A stretch of DNA of 64,000 nt from positions 1 through 64,000 of the forward strand of contig CAXHZO010000002.1 of NCBI GenBank assembly GCA_964022095.1. Direction: 5' to 3'. Positions within the stretch are counted from its first letter, which is position 1, and every line of letters starts with the position of its first letter. The DNA comes from an uncultured Arcobacteraceae bacterium. Its GTDB lineage: Bacteria; Campylobacterota; Campylobacteria; Campylobacterales; Arcobacteraceae. Under the pieces are notes generated by a model. The model did not search any database. It saw only the letters and a program-made list of their open reading frames with translations, and was not told the origin of the DNA. This document shows, in pieces, positions 9,301-28,602 of this stretch. A program made the position numbers and the translations under genes.

Positions 9301-9355
9301 ACTTAAAAGAAAAGTAGGGGATAATGAAATATCGGGGTTAAGTGCTTATGAGTAA
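6338..9355 (+). CDS. hsdR: Type I restriction enzyme R subunit
   Basis: Nuclease motif D...QIELK, HTTGSGKT, DECHRSQ, FTGTP, MLLTGFD, QAFSRTNR. Confidence 0.97.
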   Translation: MTNEHKIETDFINKLIDLKYSYRPDIRNNHSLEKNFREKFEELNQVNLSDNEFSRLLESIIDSDVYTASKTLREKNSFEREDGTPLFYTLVNTQEWCKNSFEVINQLRMNTDESHHRYDVILLINGIPMVQIELKTLDVSPRRAMAQIIDYKNDAGNGYAKTLLCFMQLFIVSNQNDTWYFANNNNTHFNFDADERFLPFYRYADQKNKKITNLDKFTKSFLKKCTLGDMLSKYMVLVAVEQKLLMMRPYQIYAVEAIVESIHQNRGNGYIWHTTGSGKTLTSFKTSTLLKDNPDIEKCLFVVDRKDLDRQTREEFNKFQEGCVEENTNTSELVKRLLSTDYANKVIVTTIQKLGLALDDTARDNKKGKKKEKSYKEQLEPLKDKRIAFIFDECHRSQFGDNHKAIKEFFPNAQLFGFTGTPIFSKNSTYKEITGEEKTIKTTEAIFQKELHAYTITHAIDDRNVLSFHVDYFEVDNQEAKTKAGNIKQKAVVEAILDKHNTATNNGKFNAILASASINEAIEYHRLFKEIQKEKLEDNPNYYSLNIACVFSPPVQVLDNDKNKKDTKQIQEDLIQEKEDNKKNPDEKKKALNEILKDYNKQYGTNHNINNFDLYYQDVQKRIKDQKYPNKDYAHKHKIDIVIVVDMLLTGFDSKFLNTLYVDKNLKYHGLIQAFSRTNRVLNDTKPYGNILDFRGQQDQVDSAITLFSGEQDKEAAKLIWLVDSAPIVIEKYEVAVKAVEKFMQSQGLESTPEDVLNLKGDNARGEFINLFKDVQRLKTQLDQYTDISQENEKTIKSIMPIDTLRGFKSVYLETAKKLKAMQDKGDENLDEIVEQLDFEFVLFASAVIDYDYIMSLIAKYTSQTKTTKESMTKEQIISLIDADAKFIDEREDIKAYIDTLEMGSGLSEEQIRKGYDEFKAKKSATQLDKLAHKYSIDSKALSEFVDITIGRMILDGDMLSDLFIPLELGWKERGKKELELMEELIPLLKRKVGDNEISGLSAYE

Positions 9356-10637
9356 GAGTATTAAAAATATACCTGAAAGACGATTTCCTGAGTTCAAAGA
9401 AGAATGGAAAGAAGAGCCTTTTAATAAAGTATACACTTTAAAAGTGACAAATTCATTTTCAAGAGATAAACTAAATTATGAAAATGGTACAGTAAAAAAT
9501 ATACATTATGGGGATATACATACTAAATTTTCTACATTGTTTGATATAGAAAAAGAAAATGTTCCATATATTAATCCTTCAATATCATTAGAAAAAATAA
9601 AATTAGATAACTATTGTGTTGAAAGTGATATGATATTTGCAGATGCTTCAGAAGATTTAGATGGAGTTGGACAAAGTATCGAAATAGTTAATCTTAATAA
9701 TGAAAAACTTTTATCAGGATTACATACACTACAAGCTAGACAAAAAGAAAAAAAATTAATAACTGGATTTGGAGGTTATTTATTTCAATCTCCAAGTATT
9801 AAAGAAAGAATAAAAAAAGAGTCACAAGGTGCAAAAGTTCTAGGTATCTCTGGTGGAAGATTATCAAATATTGATATATATTATCCCCAAGATGAAGACG
9901 AACAAAAAAAAATAGCTGATTGTCTTACTTCTATTGATAACCTTATACTATCATCATCAAAAAAAGTTGAAGCGTTAAAAGAACATAAAAAAGGGCTAAT
10001 GCAACAACTTTTTCCAAAAGAGGGTGAAAGTGTACCTAATAAACGATTTCCTGAGTTTGTAGATAATGGAGATTGGTTAGAAAAAACACTTGATGATGTA
10101 GTTAATTATGAAAATGGTAAAGCACATGAAAATGATATTTTAGAAAGTGGTCAATATATTGTTGTTAATTCTAAATTTATTTCTACTCAGGGTGATGTGA
10201 AAAAATTTACAAATAAAGCTTTTTGTTTGGCAAATATTGATGATATTTTGATGGTTCTTAGTGATGTACCAAATGGCAGAGCTATTGCAAAATGTTTTTT
10301 TGTTGATAGTGATAATTTATATACTGTTAATCAGCGGATTTGTAGACTAAGTTCAAAAAAAGGTTATGTAAGTCAATTCCTTTTTTATATTATTAATAGA
10401 AATAAATACTTTTTATCATTTGATGATGGTATTAAACAAACAAATCTTAGAAAAATAGATGTATTAGATTGCCCTTTATTATTACCTCCAACAAAAGAAG
10501 AGCAAGAAAAAATATCTAATTTTATTTTTTCAATAGATAAATTAATAGATAACCAAACCAAAAAAGTAGAAGCATTAAAAGAACATAAAAAAGGGTTAAT
10601 GCAACAACTTTTCCCAAACAATGAGGTAGATAAATGA
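9348..10637 (+). CDS. hsdS: Type I R-M specificity subunit
   Basis: Two TRDs with repeated conserved regions (RFPEF; EQ.KI; KKVEALKEHKKGLMQQLFP twice); ATG 9348 overlaps the hsdR end. Confidence 0.96.
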   Translation: MSKSIKNIPERRFPEFKEEWKEEPFNKVYTLKVTNSFSRDKLNYENGTVKNIHYGDIHTKFSTLFDIEKENVPYINPSISLEKIKLDNYCVESDMIFADASEDLDGVGQSIEIVNLNNEKLLSGLHTLQARQKEKKLITGFGGYLFQSPSIKERIKKESQGAKVLGISGGRLSNIDIYYPQDEDEQKKIADCLTSIDNLILSSSKKVEALKEHKKGLMQQLFPKEGESVPNKRFPEFVDNGDWLEKTLDDVVNYENGKAHENDILESGQYIVVNSKFISTQGDVKKFTNKAFCLANIDDILMVLSDVPNGRAIAKCFFVDSDNLYTVNQRICRLSSKKGYVSQFLFYIINRNKYFLSFDDGIKQTNLRKIDVLDCPLLLPPTKEEQEKISNFIFSIDKLIDNQTKKVEALKEHKKGLMQQLFPNNEVDK

Positions 10638-11704
10638 GTAACAAACCAAAAATACATAAGTATAAAACTCAAAAAGGCTTAGTGAAAAAATTAAGAAGTG
10701 ATTTCTCAGGTATAGATTTTATACTACTTTTTGCATATAACGGTACAGGTAAGACACGACTATCAATGGAGTTTAAAGAAATAGGGAAAAGAAAAACAGG
10801 GCAAGATAGAGATACTCTCTATTTTAATGCCTTTACCGAAGACCTTTTTTCATGGTATAACGACTTTGATGGTGACAATGAACGATACATTAAGATAAAT
10901 TCAGATTCTCAATTTTTCTTAGGATTTAAAGAATTGGCTTTAGAGGATAAAATATTTTCCTATTTAGAGCGATATGCTGATTTTGATTTTAAAATAGACT
11001 ATGATACTTGGAAAGTGGTATTTTCTCGTGGAGATAGTGAGCATATTAAAGTATCTCGCGGAGAGGAAAATATGTTTATATGGTGTGTGTTTCTTGCTGT
11101 AGTACAGTTGGCAATAGATGAGAATGAATCATATAACTGGATAAAGTTTTTATATATAGATGACCCTATCTCTTCACTTGATGATAATAATGCCATAGCA
11201 GTAGCAAGTGATTTAGCAAATCTACTTAAAAATAGTAACGACAAGTTTAAAACTGTTATATCCTCACATCATAGTCTATTTTTTAATGTAATGTGTAATG
11301 AGTTAAAAACATTTACCCATAAAAAATATTTTTTACATAAAAAAGATGATACAAATGAATATACACTAAGAGCTACAGATGATACACCTTTTTTTCATCA
11401 TGTAGCGATGATAGATGCTTTAAAAAAAGCAGAAGAATCTGGTAAATTATATGCTTACCATTTTAATATGCTTAGAAATGTATTGGAAAAAACATCTACA
11501 TTTTTTGGATTTAAAGATTTTTCCGATTGTATAAAGGGAATTGAAGATGAAGCATTATATTCAAGAGCGTTAAACTTACTAAGCCATGGTAAATATTCTA
11601 TTTATGAGCCAAAAGAGATGGTAGAAGATAATAAAAAATTATTCAAAAAAATTTTAGAGGCATTTTTAGATAAATATAAATTTGATTTGCCAGAGTTACA
11701 TTAA
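10634..11704 (+). CDS. prrC: PrrC-type anticodon nuclease (ABC ATPase + HEPN)
   Basis: Walker A AYNGTGKT, PrrC box YFNAFTEDLFSWYND, signature VSRGEE, Walker B YIDDPISSLD, H-loop SSHH, LRNVLEK and RALNLLSH; embedded in an hsd operon. Confidence 0.88.
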   Translation: MSNKPKIHKYKTQKGLVKKLRSDFSGIDFILLFAYNGTGKTRLSMEFKEIGKRKTGQDRDTLYFNAFTEDLFSWYNDFDGDNERYIKINSDSQFFLGFKELALEDKIFSYLERYADFDFKIDYDTWKVVFSRGDSEHIKVSRGEENMFIWCVFLAVVQLAIDENESYNWIKFLYIDDPISSLDDNNAIAVASDLANLLKNSNDKFKTVISSHHSLFFNVMCNELKTFTHKKYFLHKKDDTNEYTLRATDDTPFFHHVAMIDALKKAEESGKLYAYHFNMLRNVLEKTSTFFGFKDFSDCIKGIEDEALYSRALNLLSHGKYSIYEPKEMVEDNKKLFKKILEAFLDKYKFDLPELH

Positions 11705-11719
11705 AAAGAGAGATGAAAA

Positions 11720-13402
11720 ATGAGTAATGAAGATCAAAATAAACTAGGTAAAACCCTTTGGGATATTGCAGATGAACTGCGTGGAGCTATGAATGCGGAT
11801 GATTTCCGTGATTATATGCTTTCATTTTTGTTTTTAAAGTATTTATCAAGTAATTATGAAACAGCTATAAAAAAAGAGCTAGGAAAAGACTATAAAGAAG
11901 ATACTCCTTTAACAATAGAAGAGATAGAAGTACCAAAGAAGAATGCAAAAGATTCTAAAGATACAGAGATAAAATTTAAAGTGATAACTCCTTTACAATT
12001 TTGGTATGATAAAAATCAAGGTGATATAAAAGAGATAGAAAAAATAATGCGTCGTAAGATTCACTATGTGATACAGCCCAAGTATCTATGGGGTGCGATA
12101 GTTGAAAGAGCTAGGATACAAAATAAAGACTTATTAAGTACCCTTAGTGAAGCATTTACACATATCGAAGATGACTCCTTTGAAAATAGTTTTAAAGGAC
12201 TATTTTCAGAGATAAATCTAAACTCTGAAAAACTAGGTAAAACATACGAAGATAAAAATGCAAAAATTTGTAAAATTATTACAAAGATAAATGAAGGTAT
12301 TTCGCAGTTTTCTACAAGTGTTGATAATCTTGGAAATGCTTATGAGTATTTAATCGGACAATTTGCCGCAGGTGGTGGTAAAAAAGCGGGAGAGTTTTAT
12401 ACGCCACAAGAGATTTCATCTATACTTTCAAAAATAGTTATCCTTGATTGTCAAGATCCAACTATGGGAGCAAAAAATAAACTAGATAAAGTATTTGATC
12501 TTACTTGTGGTTCAGGGTCTTTACTTTTAAATGTAAAAAACCAGTTAGGAAAAGATGGTGTTATAGGTAAAATCTACGGTCAAGAAAAAAACATAACAAC
12601 TTACAACCTTGCACGGATGAATATGCTACTTCATGGTGTAAAAGATAGTGAGTTTGAAATACACCACGGTGATACCCTTAGCAATGATTGGGATATGTTA
12701 AATGAAGAAAACCCATCAAAAAAAGTAGTGTTTGATGCAATAGTAGCTAATCCTCCTTTTTCCCTGCGTTGGACACCAAGCGATACTATGGCACAAGATT
12801 TCCGTTTCAAAGGGTATGGACTAGCTCCTAAGTCTGCGGCTGATTTTGCTTTTCTTTTACATGGATTTCACTTCTTATCAAAAGAGGGAACGATGGCTAT
12901 TATCTTACCTCATGGTGTATTGTTTCGTGGTGGAGCAGAAGCAAATATAAGAACAAAACTATTAAAAGATAATAACATAGATACAGTTATAGGATTACCA
13001 TCTAATCTATTTTTCTCAACAGGTATTCCAGTATGTATCATAGTACTTAAAAAGTGTAAAAAACATGATGATATACTTTTTATCAATGCAAGTGGAGAAG
13101 ATAGCTTTGAGAAGAAAAAAAGACAAAATTCACTAAGAGTTAGAGATATAGATAAGATAGTCTCAACTTATCAATACAGAAAAGAAGAAGATAGATATTC
13201 AAGACGAGTATCTATGGATGAGATAGAGACAAATGACTATAATCTAAATATCTCAAGATATATCACAACAGCTAAACCTGAAAAGCCTGTAAAATTGGAT
13301 GAGGTAAATAAAGAGCTTGTAGGTTTAGAAAAAGATATAGTTAACTATACTAAAGAGCATAATAAATTTTTAGAAGAGTTGGGATTATCAATTTTACCTT
13401 AG
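11720..13402 (+). CDS. hsdM: Type I R-M methyltransferase subunit
   Basis: LWDIADELRG, GEFYTP, DLTCGSGSLL, NPPF, LPHGVLFRG. Confidence 0.97.
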   Translation: MSNEDQNKLGKTLWDIADELRGAMNADDFRDYMLSFLFLKYLSSNYETAIKKELGKDYKEDTPLTIEEIEVPKKNAKDSKDTEIKFKVITPLQFWYDKNQGDIKEIEKIMRRKIHYVIQPKYLWGAIVERARIQNKDLLSTLSEAFTHIEDDSFENSFKGLFSEINLNSEKLGKTYEDKNAKICKIITKINEGISQFSTSVDNLGNAYEYLIGQFAAGGGKKAGEFYTPQEISSILSKIVILDCQDPTMGAKNKLDKVFDLTCGSGSLLLNVKNQLGKDGVIGKIYGQEKNITTYNLARMNMLLHGVKDSEFEIHHGDTLSNDWDMLNEENPSKKVVFDAIVANPPFSLRWTPSDTMAQDFRFKGYGLAPKSAADFAFLLHGFHFLSKEGTMAIILPHGVLFRGGAEANIRTKLLKDNNIDTVIGLPSNLFFSTGIPVCIIVLKKCKKHDDILFINASGEDSFEKKKRQNSLRVRDIDKIVSTYQYRKEEDRYSRRVSMDEIETNDYNLNISRYITTAKPEKPVKLDEVNKELVGLEKDIVNYTKEHNKFLEELGLSILP

Positions 13403-13674
13403 TAAAAAAAGCAATAGAATTAAAATATATAGATAAGCCAGAAGCAGATATAAATACAAAATATATTAAAGATTCAGCAAAGCTGATAAAAGAGTTAAAG
13501 GGGACAACTGCTGTAATAGTTTATGGTCCATTATTAATCATTAATATTTATGAAAATAAAGAGAATAAAATCTTTACTATAATGATGAATAAGTCTCAAC
13601 AGGAACTATTAAGTTCTCAACCTAGTTTACAAAATAGTCCTCATGAACTTATAGATATTATTAATAAGCAATAA
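13402..13674 (+). pseudogene. 5'-truncated gene remnant (90 sense codons, no standard start at the 5' end)
   Basis: Open frame VKKAIELKYIDKPEADINTK...PHELIDIINKQ* abutting the hsdM stop; nearest upstream in-frame stop at 13363. Confidence 0.6.
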
Positions 13675-13719
13675 GTATTATTAGAAATTGAAGATTATAA
13701 TGTTGAGTAATACTCATTA

Positions 13720-13748
13720 TTGACAATTAGGCGATATTCGCCTATAAT
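13720..13748 (+). promoter_or_regulatory. Consensus sigma70 promoter with embedded palindromic operator
   Basis: TTGACA (13720-13725), 17-bp spacer, TATAAT (13743-13748); TAGGCGA-tat-TCGCCTA at 13728-13744. Confidence 0.85.
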
Positions 13749-13771
13749 ATATAAAAACAAAAGATACAACT

Positions 13772-14221
13772 ATGACACAACAACAAATTAGTAAACTATT
13801 AGATGTACCAGATAGAACACTTAGAGATTGGAAAAAGAGTAGACAAAGATTATATAACTTATTAGAGTCATTAGAGTACGATGAAGCAAAAAAAAAGATA
13901 AATGCTGTAGATGTAGATGATGTAATAGTATTTGATCCCAGAGCTTACTCTCATAATCTTTTTTGGCAAACGAATAAACAAAGTGAACAAAAGGTGTACT
14001 CTATTATCTCAAACTATCTATCAACCATGAATGAAGATGATATAAAAACTCTATGTAAACAGTTTGGTAAAAATATGGTTAAAAGTGTACTTATAAGTAA
14101 ATATAAAAATATGTATGTAAAAGGTTATATATCTACAAATGGAATGGATATACCATTAGAGGGTACTTATAATCAAAATGAGATGTATAAACAACTACTA
14201 GGAATGATCAATGACTGTTAG
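13772..14221 (+). CDS. HTH-containing putative antitoxin/regulator
   Basis: N-terminal HTH (QQQISKLLDVPDRTLRDWK); overlaps the AbiEii-type gene. Confidence 0.7.
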   Translation: MTQQQISKLLDVPDRTLRDWKKSRQRLYNLLESLEYDEAKKKINAVDVDDVIVFDPRAYSHNLFWQTNKQSEQKVYSIISNYLSTMNEDDIKTLCKQFGKNMVKSVLISKYKNMYVKGYISTNGMDIPLEGTYNQNEMYKQLLGMINDC

Positions 14222-14885
14222 TGTAAAACAAGCTCTTGACAAAATTTGTAATGATAATATATTTAACGATGAGCTGTACTTCACTGGAGGTACAGCTTTG
14301 GCTTTTTATCTTAATCATAGAGTATCAGAAGATATTGATATAGTATCTTCAAAAGCTTTACCATATAGAAAAATTATTCCTTCTATCACAACAGTTGGAG
14401 GTACAAAACTAAAAGATGAAAATGTAACTGCTTTAAGAATGGCAGGATTGTTTCCCGATGAGTATATGATGAAATTTGTACTTGATGATGTAAAGCTAGA
14501 GTTCTTCCAAGCTAATAGACCTATTCAAAAAGAGATACTATCAAGTGCTACATTTACGAATTATGAAAACTCCAATTTAAAAATACTTGATGTTAAATCT
14601 GTAGCCAAGTTAAAAATAGTAGCATTGATCATGAGAGATAAGTCAAGAGATTTATTTGATTTTGGAAGTATCTTAGATCATAAGGTACTAAGTAACGAAG
14701 AGATAGTTGATTTATTTTCTAAAATGAAAAGTGAAATTAATAATGTAAAAGATATTGTTGATTTTATTAATTCAAAAAAAGAACCTACAGATGATGAAGC
14801 TGTTTATCTTAGTGAGAGTGATAGAATTGATTTAAGTTTTGAGGAGATAAAAGAACAAGTTGCCCTTTTTCTAAATTTATTGTAA
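14211..14885 (+). CDS. Nucleotidyltransferase, AbiEii/AbiGii toxin family
   Basis: FTGGTALAFYLNHRVSEDID and K...R.KSRDLFD motifs. Confidence 0.9.
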   Translation: MTVSVKQALDKICNDNIFNDELYFTGGTALAFYLNHRVSEDIDIVSSKALPYRKIIPSITTVGGTKLKDENVTALRMAGLFPDEYMMKFVLDDVKLEFFQANRPIQKEILSSATFTNYENSNLKILDVKSVAKLKIVALIMRDKSRDLFDFGSILDHKVLSNEEIVDLFSKMKSEINNVKDIVDFINSKKEPTDDEAVYLSESDRIDLSFEEIKEQVALFLNLL

Positions 14886-15348: not shown

Positions 15349-15375
15349 GGTATGGAAATTTTAAATTTCCATACC
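15349..15375. terminator. Hairpin between convergent genes
   Basis: ggtatggaaatt-tta-aatttccatacc, perfect 12-bp stem. Confidence 0.65.
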
Positions 15376-16482
15376 ATTTTCTAGAAGTATTTTATTTCTT
15401 CCAGACTCTTTTGCTTCATATAAAAGCACATCAGCTTTTTGTAAAGTGTTCTCATAGCTATCATAACTATTTCTAATTGCAACACCAGCTGAGAATGTCA
15501 CTTTGATTTTTTGATTATTATAAACAAAGCTATTATCAGAGATAATCATTTTTATTCTTTTTAAATATTGAAGTAATTCTCTATTTAGTTTGAAGTGTAT
15601 TATTGAAACAAACTCTTCTCCACCGTATCTACAAACTACATCATGATCTCTTGTGTATTTTGCTAATACTTTTGCAAATGTTGAAAGAACAACATCTCCA
15701 CACTCATGACCATAAGTGTCATTTAGTGTTTTAAAGTGGTCTAAGTCAAAGAATACAACTGCATATTGAGTGTTATTTCTCATATATGAGCTTTCAATTT
15801 TTTTAAGCTCTTCTGTATAAGCTCTTCTTGTAAGAAGACCAGTTAAGTGATCTCTCATACTCTCATCTTTTGTTCTACTTAACTCTGCTTCTAAAGATTT
15901 TACTTTCTCTTCTAGCTCTTGAACTTTTGATTTCCCTGATTGTAATTTATCAGTTACATTATTCATTTCACTTTCGATAGAGCTTGCCGCATTGATAAGT
16001 TCTGTTTGAATTTTTGATAATGCATCTAATCCATCATCATTTATATCTATTGATTGAATTCTTTCTTTTATAGTTAGTACATTTTTTGAACCTGAACCAT
16101 TGCTTGTAATAGCTTCATTTAAATATTGTCCCATTAAAACAACAAATTTAGAAATATCTGAAGTTCTCTTTTTTACAACATTTTTATCTTTTTCAAATCT
16201 TTTAGTTATGAAGTTTTCTATTTGTTCTTGAACTTCTCTTTTAAATAAAATAGTAGAATCTTTTTCTATTTTTTCAAATAAAGCATCAACTTCACTATCA
16301 TCTTTATCACATATTGAAGGTAAAACTGAGTGTTTTAATAGGCTTGCAAGAGTGTCAACATTTTCAGTAGATACTCTTTTTAATAACAAAGGAACTACCT
16401 CTTCAAGAGTAGAGATATTGTTTTTTTCTACATCTGTCTTTTCTAAATCACTTAATTGAGTAATTAACGTTTCAAATTGCAT
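15361..16482 (-). CDS. Diguanylate cyclase (GGDEF)
   Basis: DHLTGL, DLDHFK, GGEEF, RxxD I-site (RDHD), preceding coiled coil. Confidence 0.93.
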   Translation of the reverse strand: MQFETLITQLSDLEKTDVEKNNISTLEEVVPLLLKRVSTENVDTLASLLKHSVLPSICDKDDSEVDALFEKIEKDSTILFKREVQEQIENFITKRFEKDKNVVKKRTSDISKFVVLMGQYLNEAITSNGSGSKNVLTIKERIQSIDINDDGLDALSKIQTELINAASSIESEMNNVTDKLQSGKSKVQELEEKVKSLEAELSRTKDESMRDHLTGLLTRRAYTEELKKIESSYMRNNTQYAVVFFDLDHFKTLNDTYGHECGDVVLSTFAKVLAKYTRDHDVVCRYGGEEFVSIIHFKLNRELLQYLKRIKMIISDNSFVYNNQKIKVTFSAGVAIRNSYDSYENTLQKADVLLYEAKESGRNKILLENGMEI

Positions 16483-20078: not shown

Positions 20079-22412
20079 TTATTTCTTTACTGCATCAAAA
20101 TTTCCTTTGATTTGTATATTATCAGAAGATTTCATATTTAAGCTACCTTTTATTAGTTCTGCTTCATCTCCATAAAAAGTACCAGAGCCACCAGCTCCTT
20201 TTGTTGTATTAGATGGAGAAAATGAAATAGTTGAAAAAAACTTATCTGCAGAGCCTTCAAAATTTAATTCCCTTGAAGTGCCATCACCTACATCATTGAT
20301 ATTTATTTTACCATTTGTTAGTTGGTTAAAGTTTGCTCCAAAATCAATATCCATAGAAATTGTTGTATCTTCAGGTATATCTACTTTATTTTTATTAATA
20401 TCTTTTAAATATTGTGAACCTGTATTGAATTCATGATTATTAAAATTACCATTGTATGAAGCATTAGCAGTAGTATTATATAAGTATGAAGAACTAGTAA
20501 TATTATCAATACTATTTATTACATCACTTAATAAAATATCCTCTTCATTTGTATTGTTATTAGAACTATCATCATTGTCATCATCTGTAAAAATATCAAG
20601 AATACCACCTAGTATACTATCGTCATTTGTTGTATCAGAAACATCAGCAACAACATCTTCAACAGTGTCAGTAGTATTATTTGTAACAGAGTTGTCTTCT
20701 GTAATAGTATCAGCAACATTTTCTACAATATTCTCAGTAGTATCAGAAACATCAGCAACAACATCTTCAACCGTGTCAGTAGTATTATCAGTAATAGCAG
20801 GAGTATCTTCACTATTATTCTCTGTGATAGTATCAGTAGTGTTCTCAACTACTTCCTCAACTGTATCGGTATTATCTTCTACATTATTATCAGTAGTTTC
20901 ATCATCTGTGAAAATATCAAGAATACCACCTAGTATACTATCGTCATTTGTTGTTTCAGTAACATTTTCTACAATATTCTCAGTAGTATCAGAAACATCA
21001 GTAACAACATCTTCAACAGTGTCAGTAGTATTATTTGTAACAGAGTTGTCTTCTGTAATAGTATCAGCAACATTTTCTACAATATTCTCAGTAGTATCAG
21101 AAACATCAGCAACAACATCTTCAACCGTGTCAGTAGTATTATCAGTAATAGCAGGAGTATCTTCACTATTATTCTCTGTGATAGTATCAGTAGTGTTCTC
21201 AACTACTTCCTCAACTGTATCGGTATTATCTTCTACATTATTATCAGTAGTTTCATCATCTGTGAAAATATCAAGAATACCACCTAGTATACTATCGTCA
21301 TTTGTTGTATCAGCAACATTTTCTACAAGATTTTCAGTAGTATCAGAAACATCAGCAACAACATCTTCAACCGTGTCAGTAGTATTATCAGTAATAGCAG
21401 GAGTATCTTCACTATTATTCTCTGTGATAGTATCAGTAGTGTTCTCAACTACTTCCTCAACTGTATCAGCATTGTTTTCTAGTTCATTTTCAGTAGTGTC
21501 AGAAACATCTGCAACTACATCTTCAACCGTGTCAGATGTATAAGCAGTATCCTCACTATTATTAGAATCATCAGTAACAGAGTTATTTTGACTATTAGAA
21601 ACAATATTTGTATTTTCATCTTCTAAAGTATTGACATCTGTTTCTTGTGAAGTAATTACTTCTGTATTTCTTTGAGACTCTTCTGAATTTATAGGTTTAT
21701 TATCAATTATTAGTTTATCTTTATTTAGCTCTTGTGTTTCCTTAATTGTAATTTTATTATTAGCTACGGGGTCTTTTTTAATCACAGATATTGAATCATT
21801 TGCAAGGTTTTTTTCAATAGTTAAATTTTGGTTAATATTTTTTATATCATTCTTTTTTATCTTACGAACTTCTAATGGTTCGTTTGTTCTTTCTTTTAAT
21901 ATTTCTATAAATTCACCTTTAAATACTTCAACACTAGCATTAGTTATAATATTTGTTATTTCAATTTTACCTTCTGTACAGAATATTTTTTCTATATTTT
22001 CATCTATTTGAGTAACTATTTGTGTACCTCTAATTCCTATTGAGGCAGTTTTTGTTTTTAATTTAAAATTTTTAGGAACAATTTTTCCTATTTTCCCTGT
22101 AATTGTTCTAAAAACACCTTTTGTCATAGAGAATTCTGCTTTTGAATTTAAATTATCAAATATATAATTATTAATCTTGAAAACAGAGTTTTGACCAACT
22201 GTAATAATTGTTTCATCATTAAAAAGTATTTGTAATTTTGTATTTTTTTTTGTAGTTAATATATCTTTTTTATAAAAGATAGTATTTTTATTTACATCAA
22301 TTGCTTTTCCATCCCTTATAATTTCAGCTTTTCCTTTAAAAGCGACAACCTTCCCAACATTAGCTAGTAAAAAACTACTTAAAATAAAAAATAGTATTAT
22401 TGTTTTTCTCAT
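20079..22412 (-). CDS. Secreted FecR-domain protein with acidic repeat stalk and TbpB-like C-terminal beta-barrel
   Basis: Signal peptide, FecR motif (KTKTASIGIRGT, EGKIEI), D/E/T/N repeats, C-terminus ASYNG...DIDFG...GTFYGDEAELIKG...GNFDAVKK. Confidence 0.8.
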   Translation of the reverse strand: MRKTIILFFILSSFLLANVGKVVAFKGKAEIIRDGKAIDVNKNTIFYKKDILTTKKNTKLQILFNDETIITVGQNSVFKINNYIFDNLNSKAEFSMTKGVFRTITGKIGKIVPKNFKLKTKTASIGIRGTQIVTQIDENIEKIFCTEGKIEITNIITNASVEVFKGEFIEILKERTNEPLEVRKIKKNDIKNINQNLTIEKNLANDSISVIKKDPVANNKITIKETQELNKDKLIIDNKPINSEESQRNTEVITSQETDVNTLEDENTNIVSNSQNNSVTDDSNNSEDTAYTSDTVEDVVADVSDTTENELENNADTVEEVVENTTDTITENNSEDTPAITDNTTDTVEDVVADVSDTTENLVENVADTTNDDSILGGILDIFTDDETTDNNVEDNTDTVEEVVENTTDTITENNSEDTPAITDNTTDTVEDVVADVSDTTENIVENVADTITEDNSVTNNTTDTVEDVVTDVSDTTENIVENVTETTNDDSILGGILDIFTDDETTDNNVEDNTDTVEEVVENTTDTITENNSEDTPAITDNTTDTVEDVVADVSDTTENIVENVADTITEDNSVTNNTTDTVEDVVADVSDTTNDDSILGGILDIFTDDDNDDSSNNNTNEEDILLSDVINSIDNITSSSYLYNTTANASYNGNFNNHEFNTGSQYLKDINKNKVDIPEDTTISMDIDFGANFNQLTNGKININDVGDGTSRELNFEGSADKFFSTISFSPSNTTKGAGGSGTFYGDEAELIKGSLNMKSSDNIQIKGNFDAVKK
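20575..21535. repeat. Intragenic modular tandem repeats
   Basis: Near-identical blocks at offsets 354 bp (20761/21115) and 246 bp (21115/21361); three SILGGILDIFTDD units near 20581, 20902 and 21256. Confidence 0.92.
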
Positions 22413-22421
22413 TTTTAACCT

Positions 22422-24029
22422 TTAAAAATTAAATGATTTAATAAAATTGATTTTTCCCTCAATCTCTTCATATATATATGGATCTTGGTTTGAATCATTA
22501 TCAACGTATGACATAGAAAATAAAATTTGATTATTTTCTGAAAATTTATTTAAATATACCATTGAAATCAAAAAGTTATTATCTTTTCTTTTTGATTCAA
22601 ATAAAGGATTATAATCCATATATTTATTTACCGTAAACTGTGAAGATAATTTTATCATATTTTTCTTATTAATCAAATATATATACTCAAAACCACTGCT
22701 ATATGCAAGTTTGTCAATATCATTTCTTGAATTGTAAATTGATGAATTTTTTGATAATTTTGAATAAACTGATAGATTTTTTAAAAAATTATATTTTAAA
22801 AATAGAGCATAATTATTATAGTTCTTATCTTTATTATTAGTACTTAAATATAGAACCCTTTGATATTTTAATGATAGGTAAATAAGTCTCGAAGCTAAAT
22901 CAGTACTTAAAGAAAAGGAGTCAAAGTCATTTACTTCTTTTTTTATTCTTGTTGCTTCAAAGTTTAAAGAATATATTTGATTATTTTTTTTGTCACTAAA
23001 TAATATTGATGGTTTATATGAAAATACTGTCATATTTTGATCTTTTTCATTAAAGTAGTTTTTATTGAAAACCAAAAAAGAATTTTTAATTGCAAGATCC
23101 TTTTTTGTATTTATAAAATTAAGGGAAAAAGCTTCATTATGAAAATTATCTATTATTGGTTTTTCTGAACTTACGATAATATTATTTAAACCAGGTAATT
23201 TATATTCGTTTGATTCAACACCATTATTAACGTTGCTATTTCTACCAACTCCCACCATAATAGAACCATTAATAAAGTTAGTTTTGGGCTTTTTATTTAA
23301 CTCTTCTAAATATTTGTTAACAAGTTTTTTAGATTTTGGAGTAATATTTGCTTTTGATAAAGTTTCGTATTCTTTTTTAGCTAAGGATTTCAGCTTTAGT
23401 TTATGTAATAATTTAGCATATATTAATCTAGCTTGATTGAAACTAGGTTTTATAATTAATACTCTTTCAAGTGCCGCAGTAGCTTCATCAATTAATCCAA
23501 TTTTTATAGCACTTAGGGCCAAAAAATAGTTAATATTTAAATTGTCATTATGTTTAATGAAAAGTTTAAAAAATTTACTATAGGCTTTTTTATACTCTCC
23601 TATATTATACATTGTTGAAGCACTTATATATTCATTAGAGTTTTCAATATCTTGAATAAATTCATTATTCTCTTGAGGGTTCTCTTCTACTTTATTTACT
23701 ATTACTTCTTTGTCTGACATATATATAATTGAATACTTAGGTTCTTTATCAAACTTTTTTATGTAAGTATCTTTATATGTAGAGTTTTTCTTTAAAAATA
23801 TTTGGAGATCCTTTGCTTTTTCTATAGTTTTTATATTATTTATTATTAAACTATAATCTCCTTTTAAATGGGTTCTAATAATAATATTTTCATTTGGTAT
23901 TAGTATTACAGTTTCAAAAAAATATTTCTTTATAACATCTAAATACTTACTAGATGCAACATATAAAGTATATGAGTTAGCATAAAGTGTAGAAATAGAT
24001 AAAAGAAAAACTAAAAACAACTTATACAT
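22422..24029 (-). CDS. Outer-membrane protein: SPOR-like + TPR + beta-barrel (Slam/DUF560-like)
   Basis: Signal peptide, TPR (EATAALERVLIIKP...ARL), G...NSNVN barrel start, SNQDPYIY, terminal Phe. Confidence 0.72.
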   Translation of the reverse strand: MYKLFLVFLLSISTLYANSYTLYVASSKYLDVIKKYFFETVILIPNENIIIRTHLKGDYSLIINNIKTIEKAKDLQIFLKKNSTYKDTYIKKFDKEPKYSIIYMSDKEVIVNKVEENPQENNEFIQDIENSNEYISASTMYNIGEYKKAYSKFFKLFIKHNDNLNINYFLALSAIKIGLIDEATAALERVLIIKPSFNQARLIYAKLLHKLKLKSLAKKEYETLSKANITPKSKKLVNKYLEELNKKPKTNFINGSIMVGVGRNSNVNNGVESNEYKLPGLNNIIVSSEKPIIDNFHNEAFSLNFINTKKDLAIKNSFLVFNKNYFNEKDQNMTVFSYKPSILFSDKKNNQIYSLNFEATRIKKEVNDFDSFSLSTDLASRLIYLSLKYQRVLYLSTNNKDKNYNNYALFLKYNFLKNLSVYSKLSKNSSIYNSRNDIDKLAYSSGFEYIYLINKKNMIKLSSQFTVNKYMDYNPLFESKRKDNNFLISMVYLNKFSENNQILFSMSYVDNDSNQDPYIYEEIEGKINFIKSFNF

Positions 24030-24061
24030 ATAATTTCCTATTTTTTTATTTTGTTACATAA

Positions 24062-26194
24062 CTATTTTTCATTATGTATAAATATTCTTTCAAATTTTTT
24101 ATTGGGGTTTTGTATATAAAAATTTGATCTTTCTAAATATATTTGATATATCTTTGATGAACTAGTCATAGATAATTCTTTGAAAATTTTTGATGATAAT
24201 TGAAAATTTTCTTCATAATAAAACTTTAATCCTTCATCATACTTTTCCATTTCTCTATCATTTTGTTTATCATGCAAAATTTCCCATATTCTTACGGGAT
24301 CATTTTTACCTTTTACTTTTATAAAGTCTAAAAACCTATAATTAAAAGGTTCTTTTAGAGAGTCTTTTGTAAACTCTGATATTATAATTTTAACACCATA
24401 ATATTTACATAAAGACTCAATTCTTGAACCAAGATTTATAGTATCTCCAATAACTGTATAGTCACTTCGTCCTATACTTCCAATCTCTCCAATAGTTGCA
24501 CTACCAGTGGTTATTCCTATTCCTATCTCAATCTTTGGAAGATTATTCTGAAAATAGTATTTATTGATATTATCTAAAATATTAATTTGTTCAATAGCAG
24601 TTTTAACAGCTTTATCTGCATGGTTTTCTATATCAAATGGAGCATTCCAGTAAGCCATAATTGCATCACCAATGTACTTATCAATTGTTCCATTGTTTTT
24701 TGTTATTATTTCACTCATTGGAGTTAAATAGTGATTTAAATAATTAACTAAAATTTTTGGATCACCTATTTTTTCTGAAATAGAAGTAAATTGTCTTATA
24801 TCACTAAAAAAAATAGTAATATTTTTATTTTGTGACTGAAGTTGATTTTTGTCTGTATTATTAATCAACTGTTCCATTACATCTTTTGAAACTTTTGATG
24901 CAAATTTATTTTTTATTTCTTCTTTCTTTCTCACTTCAAAAAAATAGTCAAGAATTAAACTACTTGCAGAACTAAATATTAGTGCTAAAATAGGAAATAG
25001 GGTATTGATTACTAAATACTCTTTAAATAAGAGATAATAATTTAAATAAAAGATTAAGACGGTCATTCCTAAAAAATATATTGGTATTATTACAATAGCT
25101 ATTTTTTTTATTAATATATAATTTATAAATACAATTAAAAATATAAATAAAATATTAACAGCTAAAATCCAAGATGGCTTAAATAAGTAGTCTTGATTTA
25201 ATATATTATCAATTGCATTGGCATGAACTTCTACTCCAGGGAAAACTGATTCAAATGGAGTAGCTCTTAAATCCATTAGTGCTGCAGCTGAAGTACCAAC
25301 TAATGCAATCTTATTTTCTATGTCTTTTTTACTAAAGGAATTATTATAAATATCTAATGCAGATATATATGTAAATGTTTTTTCTTTTCCTCTAAAATTA
25401 ATTAATACTCTTCCAAATCGGTCTGTTTGTATTTTATAATTGTCTAGATGAATGTTTTCAACACCATTTTCATCATAGTTAATAATGACTTTTTGAATTC
25501 CTAGTGCAATTCTTAAAATTTCTAATGAAAGAGAAGGATATAAAGAATCTTCATATGATATAATCATGGGAATACTTCTTATAATCCCTCCTTCATCTGG
25601 TATATTATTGAAAAAACCACTTGAATATGAATTATTTTGAATAATTGGTATATTCAAGATTGTTCCCTGCGCTTGTATTAAATAATCTTTTCCAAGGTTC
25701 TTGTTTTTTTCTATAAAAATTGTTTGGATAGATGGAGCTTCTTTTGATATATGATTCTTATCTTTAAACTCAAATTGATATCCAAGTATTGTTGGTGTTG
25801 ATGCTATTGTTTGTGCAAATTGTAGATCATAGTTTGGCAAATTTTCTTTTTTTATATTATATTTTTTTAAAATTTTATGGGGAGATGTTCTGTCTGCTTC
25901 TGCAAAAACAATATCAAGTCCAATTATTGCAACATTCGCTTTATGTAAGTTTTCTAGAATTTTAGAAAGTTTATCTCTTGACCAAGGCCATTGACCAAGA
26001 TTTTTTAAAGACTTTTCATCAATATCAATAATCACTACACTATTACTTTGTGGAGAGGTTTCTCCTCTTACATTAAACATAAAGTCTCTAATTCTATTAT
26101 CAAAAGAGTCAGGTAATTTAGGGAAGAAAAGATATATTGAAGATAGAAATATACTTATAAATATAATTATTGAAAGAGATAAAAGCTTGTTCAT
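24062..26194 (-). CDS. CHASE2-domain class III adenylate cyclase
   Basis: IIDIDEKSL..LGQWPWSR, PGVEVHA, three TM, FSDIRQFT, IDKYIGDAIMA, DYTVIGDTINLGSRIE. Confidence 0.93.
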   Translation of the reverse strand: MNKLLSLSIIIFISIFLSSIYLFFPKLPDSFDNRIRDFMFNVRGETSPQSNSVVIIDIDEKSLKNLGQWPWSRDKLSKILENLHKANVAIIGLDIVFAEADRTSPHKILKKYNIKKENLPNYDLQFAQTIASTPTILGYQFEFKDKNHISKEAPSIQTIFIEKNKNLGKDYLIQAQGTILNIPIIQNNSYSSGFFNNIPDEGGIIRSIPMIISYEDSLYPSLSLEILRIALGIQKVIINYDENGVENIHLDNYKIQTDRFGRVLINFRGKEKTFTYISALDIYNNSFSKKDIENKIALVGTSAAALMDLRATPFESVFPGVEVHANAIDNILNQDYLFKPSWILAVNILFIFLIVFINYILIKKIAIVIIPIYFLGMTVLIFYLNYYLLFKEYLVINTLFPILALIFSSASSLILDYFFEVRKKEEIKNKFASKVSKDVMEQLINNTDKNQLQSQNKNITIFFSDIRQFTSISEKIGDPKILVNYLNHYLTPMSEIITKNNGTIDKYIGDAIMAYWNAPFDIENHADKAVKTAIEQINILDNINKYYFQNNLPKIEIGIGITTGSATIGEIGSIGRSDYTVIGDTINLGSRIESLCKYYGVKIIISEFTKDSLKEPFNYRFLDFIKVKGKNDPVRIWEILHDKQNDREMEKYDEGLKFYYEENFQLSSKIFKELSMTSSSKIYQIYLERSNFYIQNPNKKFERIFIHNEK

Positions 26195-26195
26195 T

Positions 26196-28532
26196 TTATA
26201 TATCTAACTGATTCTTTTCTAGTTCCCCATTTGTATACTTCTTAAAAGCATCACTATTAAAGAAAAAATCAAGTAAATATTTATCTATCTCACCATTGTT
26301 AGCTATTCTATATAGTATGTTCTTTACTTGAGATAATCGCATCGTTTCTTTATATGGCCTGTCATTTGCAGTTAATGCTTCAAATACATCTGCTAAAATC
26401 ATAATTCTATCTTCAAGGGAAATTTGATCTTCATTTAAGCCTCTTGGATAGCCTTGACCATTTAATTTTTCATGGTGGTTACAAGCGATATTCAGAACGT
26501 TTTTATACTTTTTAGGGAAGGGTAATGATGAAATCATATCATAAGATAAATACGCATGATGTCTAATTTTATCTAGCTCTTCAGGTGTTAAGGTACCTTT
26601 CTTTATAGATAAGTTATAAGTCTCATTTTGATTTAATATGAAAATATTTTCTCCATCAATTTCATATTTTTCTTCTGAGATTTTATTAAGCATTTTTTCA
26701 TCTTTTTCACTCATAAACTCTGAGCCAACATTTAGTTTTTTGATAAATGCTTTGTATTTATCTAATTTATCAACTTCCTTTTCAAACTCATCTTTTGGAA
26801 GTAATTGTTTTAATGATTTAATTTCTAAATCTTTTTTGATTAGTTCAATTCTTTGTTCAATCAGCTCAATTCTATCAAAGATTTTTTCTAGCTTTGTTGC
26901 TTTATCCATAATATAATCTGGAATTGAAATTTTTCCAACATCATGCATCCATGCAGCTAGTGCTAACTCTTTATAATTTATTGCATCATATTTTATATCT
27001 TTATAGACTGTTTGATCATCATTTATTGCTTCTGCAATCATTAAAGCTATTTTCTCAACTTTTTCAATATGACAAGAAGTATATGGTGATTTAGCATCAA
27101 TAGCTTTTGCAATTGTCGTGACAAAAGCATCAAGTAGATTTTCTAAGTCATTTACTAGTTGAATATTTGTTATTGTTACTGCTGCTTGAGATGCTAAATA
27201 TTTTATTACTTTTTCATCAAACTTATTAAACTCTAATATTTCATTTTCACAATTTTCATCAACTTTATTTATTAGTTGTAATACCCCTATAGTTTCATCT
27301 TCATGGTTAATCAAAGGTATGACTAACATAGACTTTGATCTATATCCTGTTAATGCATCAAATTTCTTTGTACCAGCAAATTCATAATCATCAACTGTAT
27401 ACACGTCTTTTATATTAATTGTTCTTTTTTCATTTGCACAAACTACTGATACCATAGAGTTATTTGTATTTGTGTCTCTTTCATATAATTCTAATGCAGG
27501 CCAATTTAGATTATCTTTTGAAGTACTTAAATCTGTACCTAAGATATCATTTTGAACAACTTTAAAGTTTAGGTACTTCTCATCTTTTGACTTAATATAA
27601 AGTGTTCCTGCTTGAGCATTTGTAAGTTTTCTAGTTAGTGTTAAGATATCTTCAAGTAGTTTATCTTTGTCATTCTCACTTGATAGTGTTAGGTTGATAT
27701 TCATTATTTCATCAAGTTCACTTTGAGTTAATACATCTCTTTTTAATTTACCTGTATTTACATGGATAACATCACCTTCTTTTAATACCTTTCCATTATA
27801 ATTTAGTAAAGAACACTCTTTTATATCATTTAAAATCTCATTATAATAATTAGGTTTTAAGTGATAATAAAATATTGAAAGATCATCTCTTTTTAATGCT
27901 TTTAAATTCTCTAAAATAAGTTCAGGTGTTAAGTGCTCACTTGCTTTTGCTAAGCCATTTAATCTATTTGGGAAAGAACACTCTAAAAGTAAAGATTTGA
28001 TTTTTTTATCTTTGTTTATTAAGTCAATTAAATCATAGTTTATATAAGTATCACCACTAATTACAAATGACTCATCTTTTTTATTAATCAAATAACCACA
28101 AGCACCGTCGATATGATTTGCTTTTATAGGTTTTATTTTATAATCATCTATAAAAATCTCTTCTTCTAAAGAGATAGTTTCTAATACTAAAGAATCTTGA
28201 GTGCTATTTAGAAGTTTTATTTTTGTGAAGTCTGGCCAAACTGTATCATTAAAAAAGTGTGCACTTAGTACATCAATTGTCTCTTTTAGTCCGTAAATCT
28301 TTAATGGCTTTTCTCTTTTGTCAAAGAATCCCTCAATTACATATGGTAGGTCAGATATGTGATCTGCGTGAGAGTGTGTTATAAATATATGATCAACTTC
28401 TAGTGTTTCATCACCTAAAGCTCCAACAATATTTCCTGCATCAATAATAATGTTTTTAAATATTTGAAATGATGTAGTATTGTGGCCTTTTGTTTTACTA
28501 CCACTAGCCCCTAAGATTTTTATGTAGTTCAA
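26196..28532 (-). CDS. Class II cAMP phosphodiesterase (MBL fold)-GAF-HD-GYP fusion
   Basis: THSHADH, FNDTVWPDF, GAF (GYRSKSMLVIPL...GVLQLINK), MHDVGK, HHEKLNGQGYP. Confidence 0.9.
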   Translation of the reverse strand: MNYIKILGASGSKTKGHNTTSFQIFKNIIIDAGNIVGALGDETLEVDHIFITHSHADHISDLPYVIEGFFDKREKPLKIYGLKETIDVLSAHFFNDTVWPDFTKIKLLNSTQDSLVLETISLEEEIFIDDYKIKPIKANHIDGACGYLINKKDESFVISGDTYINYDLIDLINKDKKIKSLLLECSFPNRLNGLAKASEHLTPELILENLKALKRDDLSIFYYHLKPNYYNEILNDIKECSLLNYNGKVLKEGDVIHVNTGKLKRDVLTQSELDEIMNINLTLSSENDKDKLLEDILTLTRKLTNAQAGTLYIKSKDEKYLNFKVVQNDILGTDLSTSKDNLNWPALELYERDTNTNNSMVSVVCANEKRTINIKDVYTVDDYEFAGTKKFDALTGYRSKSMLVIPLINHEDETIGVLQLINKVDENCENEILEFNKFDEKVIKYLASQAAVTITNIQLVNDLENLLDAFVTTIAKAIDAKSPYTSCHIEKVEKIALMIAEAINDDQTVYKDIKYDAINYKELALAAWMHDVGKISIPDYIMDKATKLEKIFDRIELIEQRIELIKKDLEIKSLKQLLPKDEFEKEVDKLDKYKAFIKKLNVGSEFMSEKDEKMLNKISEEKYEIDGENIFILNQNETYNLSIKKGTLTPEELDKIRHHAYLSYDMISSLPFPKKYKNVLNIACNHHEKLNGQGYPRGLNEDQISLEDRIMILADVFEALTANDRPYKETMRLSQVKNILYRIANNGEIDKYLLDFFFNSDAFKKYTNGELEKNQLDI

Positions 28533-28602
28533 GTTACAACCTTCTATAAGATTAGAATATTATAACAAAAAATGCTTTCTAATTGATTATTTTTATAAAT
28601 AT

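Follow-up and report, generated by a model that had tools for sequence, protein, structure and literature searches.

Can the export of a protein through the outer membrane be tied to the making and breaking of a cyclic nucleotide? This question is raised by a cluster of four genes, here called A to D, on a stretch of DNA from an uncultured Arcobacteraceae bacterium (GenBank assembly GCA_964022095.1, contig CAXHZO010000002.1, positions 1 to 64,000; the window, below, is this whole stretch of 64,000 nucleotides). A first-pass annotation made from the letters alone had read the cluster as a candidate trans-envelope cyclic-nucleotide system. Our analysis divides it into two modules: genes A and B, predicted to encode the enzymes that destroy and make a cyclic nucleotide, and genes C and D, which we regard with good confidence, judging from their sequences, as the pore and the cargo of a type 11 secretion system (T11SS). 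Protein export and cyclic AMP (cAMP) signalling may be linked at this locus; that the locus as a whole works in the way of our preferred model, with the two modules joined, is in our estimate an evenly balanced proposition. The four genes are as follows.

26196–28532, minus strand: gene A, 778 amino acids, TTG start; predicted class-II (metallo-beta-lactamase fold) cAMP phosphodiesterase with GAF and HD-GYP domains (Pfam and motifs)
24062–26194, minus strand: gene B, 710 amino acids; predicted receptor-type class III adenylate cyclase (Pfam and conserved residues)
22422–24029, minus strand: gene C, 535 amino acids; predicted Slam/T11SS-family outer-membrane protein (family homology, structural model and ESM Atlas)
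20079–22412, minus strand: gene D, 777 amino acids; predicted cargo of a T11SS, its FecR domain lying at the N-terminus (Pfam, profiles and model)

The list of open reading frames (ORFs) bears out the four co-directional genes of the first-pass annotation, which lie head-to-tail on the minus strand with intergenic gaps of 1, 32 and 9 nt. With the alignment of the outer-membrane protein (OMP) encoded by gene C, we gathered 51 loci, of which 30 are betaproteobacterial and 21 belong to Campylobacterota. Since eight of the 21 Campylobacterota loci contain the identical four genes in the identical order of phosphodiesterase (PDE), cyclase, OMP and FecR protein, the arrangement is not a matter of chance.

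What kind of OMP does gene C encode? Three parts follow one another behind its signal helix.

23718–23975, minus strand: SPOR-like alpha/beta domain, residues 19–104 (AlphaFold2 elements; SPOR in relatives)
23298–23636, minus strand: TPR domain, residues 132–244, seven helices (Pfam TPR families and AlphaFold2)
22428–23279, minus strand: predicted 14-strand beta-barrel, residues 251–534, ending in Phe (AlphaFold2 model)

The AlphaFold2 model, built from 39 sequences with a predicted local distance difference test score (pLDDT) of 89.2 and strands mostly above 90, comprises a signal helix, an alpha/beta domain, a disordered link, the TPR helices and 14 long strands, and the protein terminates in ...KSFNF, as the first-pass description of a signal, SPOR-like, TPR and barrel protein with a final Phe had it. 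Residues 19–104 form, in order, strand 19–27, helix 30–43, strands 49–53 and 59–66, helix 69–82, and strands 89–93 and 100–104. Fifty-two relatives, 33–62% identical, come from Arcobacter-like sources. Pfam recognizes only TPR families in gene C itself, and a search of the sequences of solved structures with its profile (A1) likewise returned TPR proteins only; among 39 relatives, TPR_Slam (PF24575) is found in 37 (best E-value 1.4e-7) and SPOR (PF05036) in 18 (best 6.3e-6), both at E<=1. Compared with the PDB by Foldseek, the barrel is closest to the 14-strand OmpG (template modelling (TM) score 0.62–0.72, depending on the target), CymA and FadL.

The family of the barrel emerges from a barrel-only profile (A3), composed of the window sequence as its first row and 27 loci, with which 1.84 billion representative sequences were searched. 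At E<=1e-3 it retrieved 6303 representatives, and each of the best 150 had an E-value under 1e-37. In the Pfam results for 75 of these 150, the Slam barrel family SlipAM (PF04575) is listed for 42 at E<=0.01 and reaches the 22-bit cut-off in 35 (both counted by eye), the top one at 58.7 bits over profile positions 11–288 of 288. Among barrels encoded beside FecR genes, SlipAM is listed for 25 of 27 in betaproteobacterial loci (13 of them at >=22 bits) and for one of 19 in Campylobacterota loci, and the motifs 'G.GYDSN' and 'N.SN...Y.Y' line up between the window-like and the SlipAM-positive barrels. In the ESM Atlas, residues 247–535 of gene C have a feature score of 0.97, with 201–207 shared features, to clusters in which 85–89% of the members are SlipAM proteins; structurally, the barrel superimposes on TPR+SlipAM clusters with TM scores of 0.92–0.95 over 279–286 residues. 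By published definition, a Slam protein joins a TPR domain to a DUF560 barrel of 14 predicted strands, and its gene lies beside that of a cargo with an 8-strand barrel (PMC5449769). From homology and predicted fold we conclude that gene C, which combines a TPR domain with a predicted 14-strand barrel, belongs to the Slam/T11SS barrel superfamily, in which it represents a divergent branch.

This architecture is shared by another group of proteins, the polysaccharide export porins of the PgaA, BcsC and PelB kind, to which a TPR domain plus a barrel is common; PgaA homologues bear a PF04575 assignment as well (PMC8406197), and BcsC appears at ranks 14 and 17 of the Foldseek comparison. Gene C might on these grounds be such a porin, unrelated to the FecR protein encoded next to it. 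We consider this extremely improbable and reject the identity, as the model has 14 strands, its TM score to BcsC is only 0.26–0.29, neither the cluster nor its flanks contain glycosyltransferase or polysaccharide genes, and the next gene always encodes a FecR/TbpB-like protein.

That neighbour, gene D, is composed of four segments.

22362–22412, minus strand: Sec-type signal peptide, about residues 1–17, MRKTIILFFILSSFLLA (read from the sequence)
21960–22262, minus strand: FecR domain (PF04773), residues 51–151 (Pfam, 46.7 bits)
20538–21797, minus strand: acidic low-complexity linker, about residues 206–625 (composition)
20082–20531, minus strand: C-terminal 8-strand TbpB-like barrel, residues 628–777, presumed T11SS targeting domain (AlphaFold2, Foldseek and hhalign)

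Predicted T11SS cargo proteins carry a variable effector at the N-terminus and an 8-strand barrel at the C-terminus, joined by a spacer that is either disordered or helical (as laid out in PMC12282271), and the segments of gene D fall into the same order. The signal peptide MRKTIILFFILSSFLLA is followed by NVGK; a lipobox cysteine is absent, the sole Cys being residue 145, so that gene D would resemble the hemophilins in being a cargo of the soluble type. The 420 residues of the linker contain 81 T, 73 D, 57 N, 51 V and 50 E (29% Asp+Glu, 2% Lys+Arg), and within it a 354-nt unit is repeated 2.1 times with 98% identity (20632–21388), suggesting a recent expansion of the spacer. This repeat also creates a spurious ORF of 363 amino acids on the opposite strand (20452–21543). 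For the final 150 residues, AlphaFold2 predicts eight strands (pLDDT 86.5). The initial reading of gene D as a signal, FecR, acidic stalk and beta-rich protein thus holds in all its parts.

The best Foldseek matches of this end domain are TbpB and NHBA (TM 0.63–0.74, depending on the target), LbpB, the C-barrel of fHbp (0.66) and PmSLP, nearly all of them proteins that depend on Slam. By hhalign, window-like ends (A4) align with the ends of eight distant Campylobacterota FecR proteins (A5) at 97.5% and E 7.8e-12. In five of these eight proteins Pfam TbpB_B_D (PF01298) scores >=26 bits, in the remaining three it lies below threshold, and their profile finds TbpB (7e-17), LbpB (9e-11) and NHBA (2e-10) in the PDB. 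These matches and the alignment to TbpB_B_D-positive relatives agree with the cargo barrel that the first-pass annotation had suspected on the FecR protein, and support the prediction that gene D ends in a TbpB-like barrel of the Slam/T11SS cargo kind. The combination with FecR is a constant one: all 57 proteins found with the gene D end as query have a FecR domain. A spacer is present in all relatives, although it is A/E/Q-rich and of other lengths instead of acidic and rich in Thr, Asp and Asn. Five relatives of 470–810 amino acids (P0055, P0058, P0092, P0097 and P0098, one of them named Arcobacter acticola) have two tandem TbpB-like end domains together with an A/E/Q-rich spacer. In one predicted protein of 1163 amino acids (P0144), a Slam-like barrel (residues 3–301) and a FecR domain (358–458) occur together; whether the two are genuinely fused or the gene call has read through a stop, the gene order is the same.

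Several results count against placing genes C and D in the T11SS family. PF04575 is matched by gene C neither with the whole protein at E<=10 nor with the barrel alone at E<=0.1, nor is it found at E<=0.1 in any of ten close relatives' barrels (L001–L011). The comparison between window-like (A9) and SlipAM-positive barrels (A10) is weak, at 55% and E 1.2e-4 over 265 columns. Among the matches listed for the barrel there is no solved Slam structure, so that the test of the fold turns on predicted models. On the side of the cargo, the direct match of gene D to TbpB_B_D spans profile positions 3–126 of 126 but is weak (E 0.021, 15.8 bits against a cut-off of 26 bits), and the window-like end profile matched nothing in the PDB by sequence at E<=10. 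Apart from these results, the betaproteobacterial ends (A6) found nothing among the solved structures at E<=1; they align with the distant Campylobacterota ends at 51.6% (E 1.5e-4), and PF01298 is found in none of 20 such proteins. With the FecR-domain profile (A8), only chance-level matches to solved structures were obtained. The Slam-like OMP of the first-pass annotation is therefore sustained by family-level homology and fold, but not by a direct PF04575 match; of the two models named there for a check, DUF560/Slam and SPOR, the window protein itself matches neither, and SPOR is seen in its relatives and SlipAM through the barrel family.

Does the pair occur as a unit? A FecR-domain ORF directly follows the OMP gene in 46 of the 51 loci; of the other five, four end at or in the OMP gene, and in L043 the downstream ORF is FecR-like by eye and disrupted. 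All 36 downstream proteins that were scanned match FecR, 35 of them at or above the 24-bit Pfam cut-off and the one from L049 below it, at 22.2 bits. A cyclase, on the other hand, is nearby in only 17 of the 51 loci, whose neighbourhoods cover flanks of 10 kb, such that a cyclase elsewhere in the genome would be missed. In the Campylobacterota, a CHASE2 cyclase is seen in 13 of 21 loci, and a homologue of gene A immediately upstream of the cyclase in nine. Three arrangements can be distinguished: the cyclase upstream with the PDE, upstream without it (L012 and L018), and convergent downstream (L016). Some loci are truncated: besides the PDE and the cyclase, L013 retains an incomplete OMP gene, L011 breaks off inside the cyclase, and L008 starts inside the OMP gene. 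Of the 30 betaproteobacterial loci, four (L036, L039, L043 and L047) have a cyclase-domain ORF on the same strand, 7–9 kb upstream, and three of these four encode CHASE2+Guanylate_cyc proteins; L036 is cut by the start of the locus and only the cyclase domain is seen.

The pair is found without a nearby cyclase in the remaining 26 betaproteobacterial loci and in seven from Campylobacterota, where the upstream flank reaches 10 kb in each of L004, L014 and L015 and 8.7 kb in L020, but only 1.6–3.1 kb in L017, L019 and L021. In the cyclase-less Campylobacterota loci, the neighbours are housekeeping or other signalling genes. Hence the pair needs no adjacent cyclase, and the invariant unit is that of pore and cargo: the conserved core of the locus is therefore the type 11 secretion pair, to which the cAMP enzymes, a frequent but dispensable neighbour, are attached in the Arcobacter-like group. 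As to the four-gene co-occurrence claimed at the outset, the order recurs in Campylobacterota as described above, but the pair often goes without the enzymes. We note some further features of these neighbourhoods. L016 encodes, two genes upstream of a SPOR-less pore (the 443-amino-acid form), a protein of 303 amino acids with a C-terminal SPOR domain (7503–8411; 42.3 bits). In L039 (771–13641), which like L036, L043 and L047 comes from a Burkholderiales metagenome-assembled genome, the genes between the cyclase and the pair include those for an amine oxidase and for a protein that combines a caspase domain (Peptidase_C14) with MORN repeats. Very long ORFs of 3–6 kb follow the FecR gene in L034, L039, L048 and L021, the one in L021 with RCC1 and PKD repeats.

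Which signal could the enzymes of the window produce and remove? The gene B protein starts with a single membrane helix, after which come a periplasmic CHASE2 domain (209.2 bits, residues 19–355), three further membrane helices and a catalytic domain (Guanylate_cyc, 83.6 bits, 455–632), the helices being read from the sequence. Residues D465, K506, D510, D578, N587 and R591 are invariant in all 12 aligned cyclases from the window and related loci, with K506 in the motif IDKYIGD and D578 in DYTVIGD. We take D465 and D510 to be the metal aspartates of class III cyclases, K506 and D578 the Lys/Asp pair that selects ATP, and N587 and R591 the transition-state Asn and Arg. Gene B is a predicted class III adenylate cyclase with a CHASE2 sensor, and the adenine-specifying K and D pointed out by the first-pass annotation are among its invariant residues. 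Gene A matches PDEase_II (PF02112; 61.4 bits at residues 46–215, cut-off 23.7), GAF (50.5 bits, 290–454) and HD_5 (113.8 bits, 637–751), and its metal-binding motifs THSHADH (HxHxDH), MHDVGK (HD) and HHEKLNGQGYP (GYP) are intact; these matches and readable motifs corroborate the metallo-beta-lactamase, GAF and HD-GYP architecture that had been read for it. The protein is a predicted class-II cAMP PDE and at the same time a predicted HD-GYP PDE. A gene for a GGDEF diguanylate cyclase with a long coiled N-terminal part (15361–16482, minus strand, 136.3 bits) lies on the same strand 3.6 kb downstream of the cluster, which, together with the HD-GYP half of gene A, hints at cyclic di-GMP traffic in the same neighbourhood.

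How, then, might the two modules communicate? The CHASE2 receptor cyclase and the PDE(class II)-GAF-HD-GYP protein would constitute a first module that makes and destroys the cyclic nucleotide. In the second, the pore would consist of a peptidoglycan-binding-like SPOR domain, the TPR domain and the 14-strand barrel of the Slam/DUF560 family, and the cargo, Sec-exported and non-lipidated, of a FecR domain, a long acidic spacer and the 8-strand TbpB-like barrel as its export tag. The pore would carry the FecR protein as far as the outer membrane or across it, a relation that we base on family membership and gene order. The FecR domain would be the periplasmic partner of the CHASE2 domain, so that the share of FecR protein still periplasmic, or part-way in the pore, would set the level of cyclase activity, and the PDE would reset the signal. 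The coupling to cAMP is suggested by the repeated neighbourhood in its three arrangements, by the independent pairing of secreted FecR-domain proteins with CHASE2 kinases in Burkholderiales and Pseudomonas and by the barrel precedent in Sinorhizobium. Direct control of cAMP by FecR–CHASE2 contact is a tentative proposal, to which we give somewhat less than an even chance. A complex prediction for the CHASE2 domain (residues 25–341, A7) and the FecR domain (residues 18–200, A8) gave 0.00 in two runs without controls and weighs neither way.

A specific version of this coupling would be a secretion-coupled second-messenger switch, in which the FecR domain of the cargo binds CHASE2 and sets the cyclase, and the pore either removes the FecR protein or half-holds it. 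In the half-held state, the C-terminal barrel would be outside, the acidic spacer threaded in the 14-strand pore and the FecR domain inside, and cAMP would report export, or a pull on the end that is exposed at the surface. The export of FlgM or ExsE follows a similar logic. We consider such a switch unlikely, if conceivable.

Against any coupling stands, first, that no gene for a cNMP-binding/CRP-type protein is found among the 51 other ORFs of the window at E<=1e-8; with no cNMP-binding/CRP-type gene in the window, the reader of the cAMP signal would have to be encoded elsewhere. Second, Slam1 is reported to move unfolded cargo completely across to the surface, and untranslocated cargo to be degraded (PMC9090332), so that the FecR domain would end outside, away from the periplasmic CHASE2 domain, unless translocation were partial. 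Third, in Sinorhizobium the FecR-domain protein SMc02177 is, according to the account in PMC5498481, a target of cAMP-Clr and dispensable for perception, as is a TPR protein. The latter two points, and the many loci in which the pair has no cyclase nearby, would fit with a self-contained type 11 pair that displays a FecR-domain binding protein or adhesin, where cyclase and PDE merely share its operon or regulon without trans-envelope contact, and where cAMP controls the surface protein or is co-expressed with it. Gene D shows a match in NCBIfam to the Leptospira surface adhesin Lsa33, albeit a weak one (E 8.7e-7, far under the cut-off), and the linkers of variable length and composition as well as the duplicated C-terminal barrels resemble those of fast-evolving surface proteins. 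However, cyclases stand beside the pair in three Campylobacterota arrangements and within 10 kb of it in a few Betaproteobacteria, a recurrence beyond what a single inherited accident would produce, and FecR domains accompany CHASE2 kinases also where there is no secretion pore (as described in PMC5192318). On balance we judge a self-contained pair to be somewhat unlikely, but regard it as the chief competitor of the coupling.

The third way of connecting the same four proteins is the bridge that the first-pass annotation had envisaged. Here, the OMP would be a receptor in the manner of FecA or NsrA and the FecR protein a periplasmic transducer, its C-terminal barrel docking to or plugging the OMP and its FecR domain touching CHASE2. 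NsrA and the CHASE2 cyclase CyaK are both reported as required for perception in Sinorhizobium (PMC7529298, PMC13001267), a pathway of this kind was proposed for Arcobacter in PMC9239204, and the inter-domain spacer, though variable in length, is present in all relatives. The tested members of the barrel and C-terminal domain families, however, export cargo, and Pfam scans of gene C and its relatives reveal no STN or TonB-box-type signalling domain. We therefore find a bridge rather improbable and retain the coupling of a secretion pair to the cyclic-nucleotide enzymes as our working model.

Two elements precede gene A.

28559–28567, minus strand: extended -10-like box TGTTATAAT, 27 nt upstream of the gene A start codon TTG (read by eye)
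28545–28540, minus strand: ribosome-binding site AGAAGG of gene A (read from the sequence)

In the surrounding DNA of 22–30% G+C, a scan for consensus promoters found 67 sites against 69.2 expected, which is the chance level in AT-rich DNA; for this reason the TGTTATAAT box is a lead only. The terminator scan found three terminator-like sites, every one intragenic. With the promoter and terminator scans at chance, we infer co-transcription from the gaps of 1–32 nt alone. Neighbouring genes on the same strand are a cation-efflux gene upstream of the cluster and a malate/lactate-dehydrogenase-like gene downstream. Across the whole window, positions 1–64000, no Rfam family reaches its gathering score. 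Farther away, a defence-type island (6338–14882, plus strand) contains type I restriction-modification genes for R (6338–9352), S (9342–10634) and M (11720–13399) subunits, with an AAA_13 ATPase gene (10634–11701) between those for S and M; an unassigned ORF of 149 amino acids (13772–14218) and a gene for an AbiEii toxin-like nucleotidyltransferase (14211–14882) follow.

How much of this has been anticipated? The four-gene cluster and the idea of a trans-envelope pathway are already in print (PMC9239204, mBio 2022), and in this one respect the significance of the locus is less than the first-pass annotation had thought; its statement that no such system has been characterised in Campylobacterota is right for experiments, but the cluster itself is published. 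The type 11 secretion reading appears to be new. Among the matches listed in full-text literature there is no published link of FecR or CHASE2 with T11SS, and FecR, CHASE2 and Arcobacter are absent from the main texts of two T11SS surveys. FecR is not included in the roughly ten cargo architectures of section 15 of PMC12282271, and the supplement to this survey gives FecR co-occurrence in 201 cases at a false discovery rate of 0.24, above the limit of 0.10; in the relevant passages of one T11SS-related preprint, FecR refers to neighbouring iron regulators. If correct, our reading would bring into type 11 secretion a clade of divergent barrels from Arcobacter-like bacteria that escapes the Pfam DUF560 model, and would add a new, FecR-bearing class of cargo and a secretion pair genetically wired to cyclic-nucleotide enzymes. 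It would also provide a concrete candidate partner for CHASE2 sensor domains, for which the recognized factors were stated in 2016 not to be known (PMC5192318). Should the secretion-coupled switch be true, a type 11 secretion system would for the first time have a part in signalling, and CHASE2 would gain a named protein ligand. The question is not confined to a single genus, as many Betaproteobacteria encode the pore–FecR pair too.

Compared with known systems, the locus combines features that are otherwise found apart. It shares with FecA-FecR-FecI the pairing of a FecR-type periplasmic domain with an outer-membrane barrel protein, but gene D has neither a cytoplasmic anti-sigma domain nor a membrane helix after its signal peptide, and among the 51 other ORFs of the window no extracytoplasmic function (ECF) sigma gene, with sigma-70 r2/r4 domains, and no TonB-dependent receptor domain is found at E<=1e-8. 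LysM-FecR proteins encoded with CHASE2 histidine kinases (Burkholderia 'BiofilmReg', P. aeruginosa PA4035-like) are likewise secreted FecR proteins with a peptidoglycan-binding module beside a CHASE2 sensor, as described in PMC5192318; there, the output is a histidine kinase and not a cyclase, the description includes no outer-membrane pore or TbpB-like tag, and peptidoglycan binding resides, through LysM, in the FecR protein, whereas here the SPOR-like domain is part of the pore. In the NsrA-CyaK/CyaD1/CyaD2-Clr pathway of Sinorhizobium meliloti, as far as the published accounts cited above describe it, an outer-membrane beta-barrel is also needed for the response of a CHASE2 cyclase to an outside signal, and the FecR-domain protein SMc02177 and the TPR protein SMb20495 belong to one cAMP circuit. 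These two are, however, dispensable targets of that circuit, are not encoded in one operon with it, and have no secretion role reported in these accounts.

Closest in gene content is the Campylobacterota cluster of PMC9239204, whose four genes are those of the window: a TPR protein and a FecR-domain protein are encoded there together with a CHASE2 adenylate cyclase and a phosphodiesterase for cAMP. Its authors concluded that all four act in one pathway and owe their spread to gene transfer, and reported CHASE2 on all Campylobacterota adenylate cyclases. They differ from us in assigning the FecR protein to the outer membrane and in describing the other simply as a TPR protein; Slam, DUF560 and a TbpB-like domain go unmentioned in the relevant sections of that paper. 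Closest in architecture are the Slam/T11SS systems themselves, Slam1-TbpB and Slam2-HpuA of Neisseria, NilB-NilC and HrpB-HrpC of Xenorhabdus and the hemophilin system of Haemophilus. Common to these and the predicted pair of the window are the periplasmic TPR domain with a 14-strand barrel, the adjacency of cargo and pore genes (here with a gap of 9 nt), and a cargo built of Sec signal, variable N-terminal effector, spacer and C-terminal 8-strand TbpB-like barrel. What sets the window apart is a barrel too divergent for PF04575, an additional N-terminal SPOR-like domain on the pore, a FecR domain as the effector, a host among the Campylobacterota, and a pair that is joined to cyclic-nucleotide enzymes.

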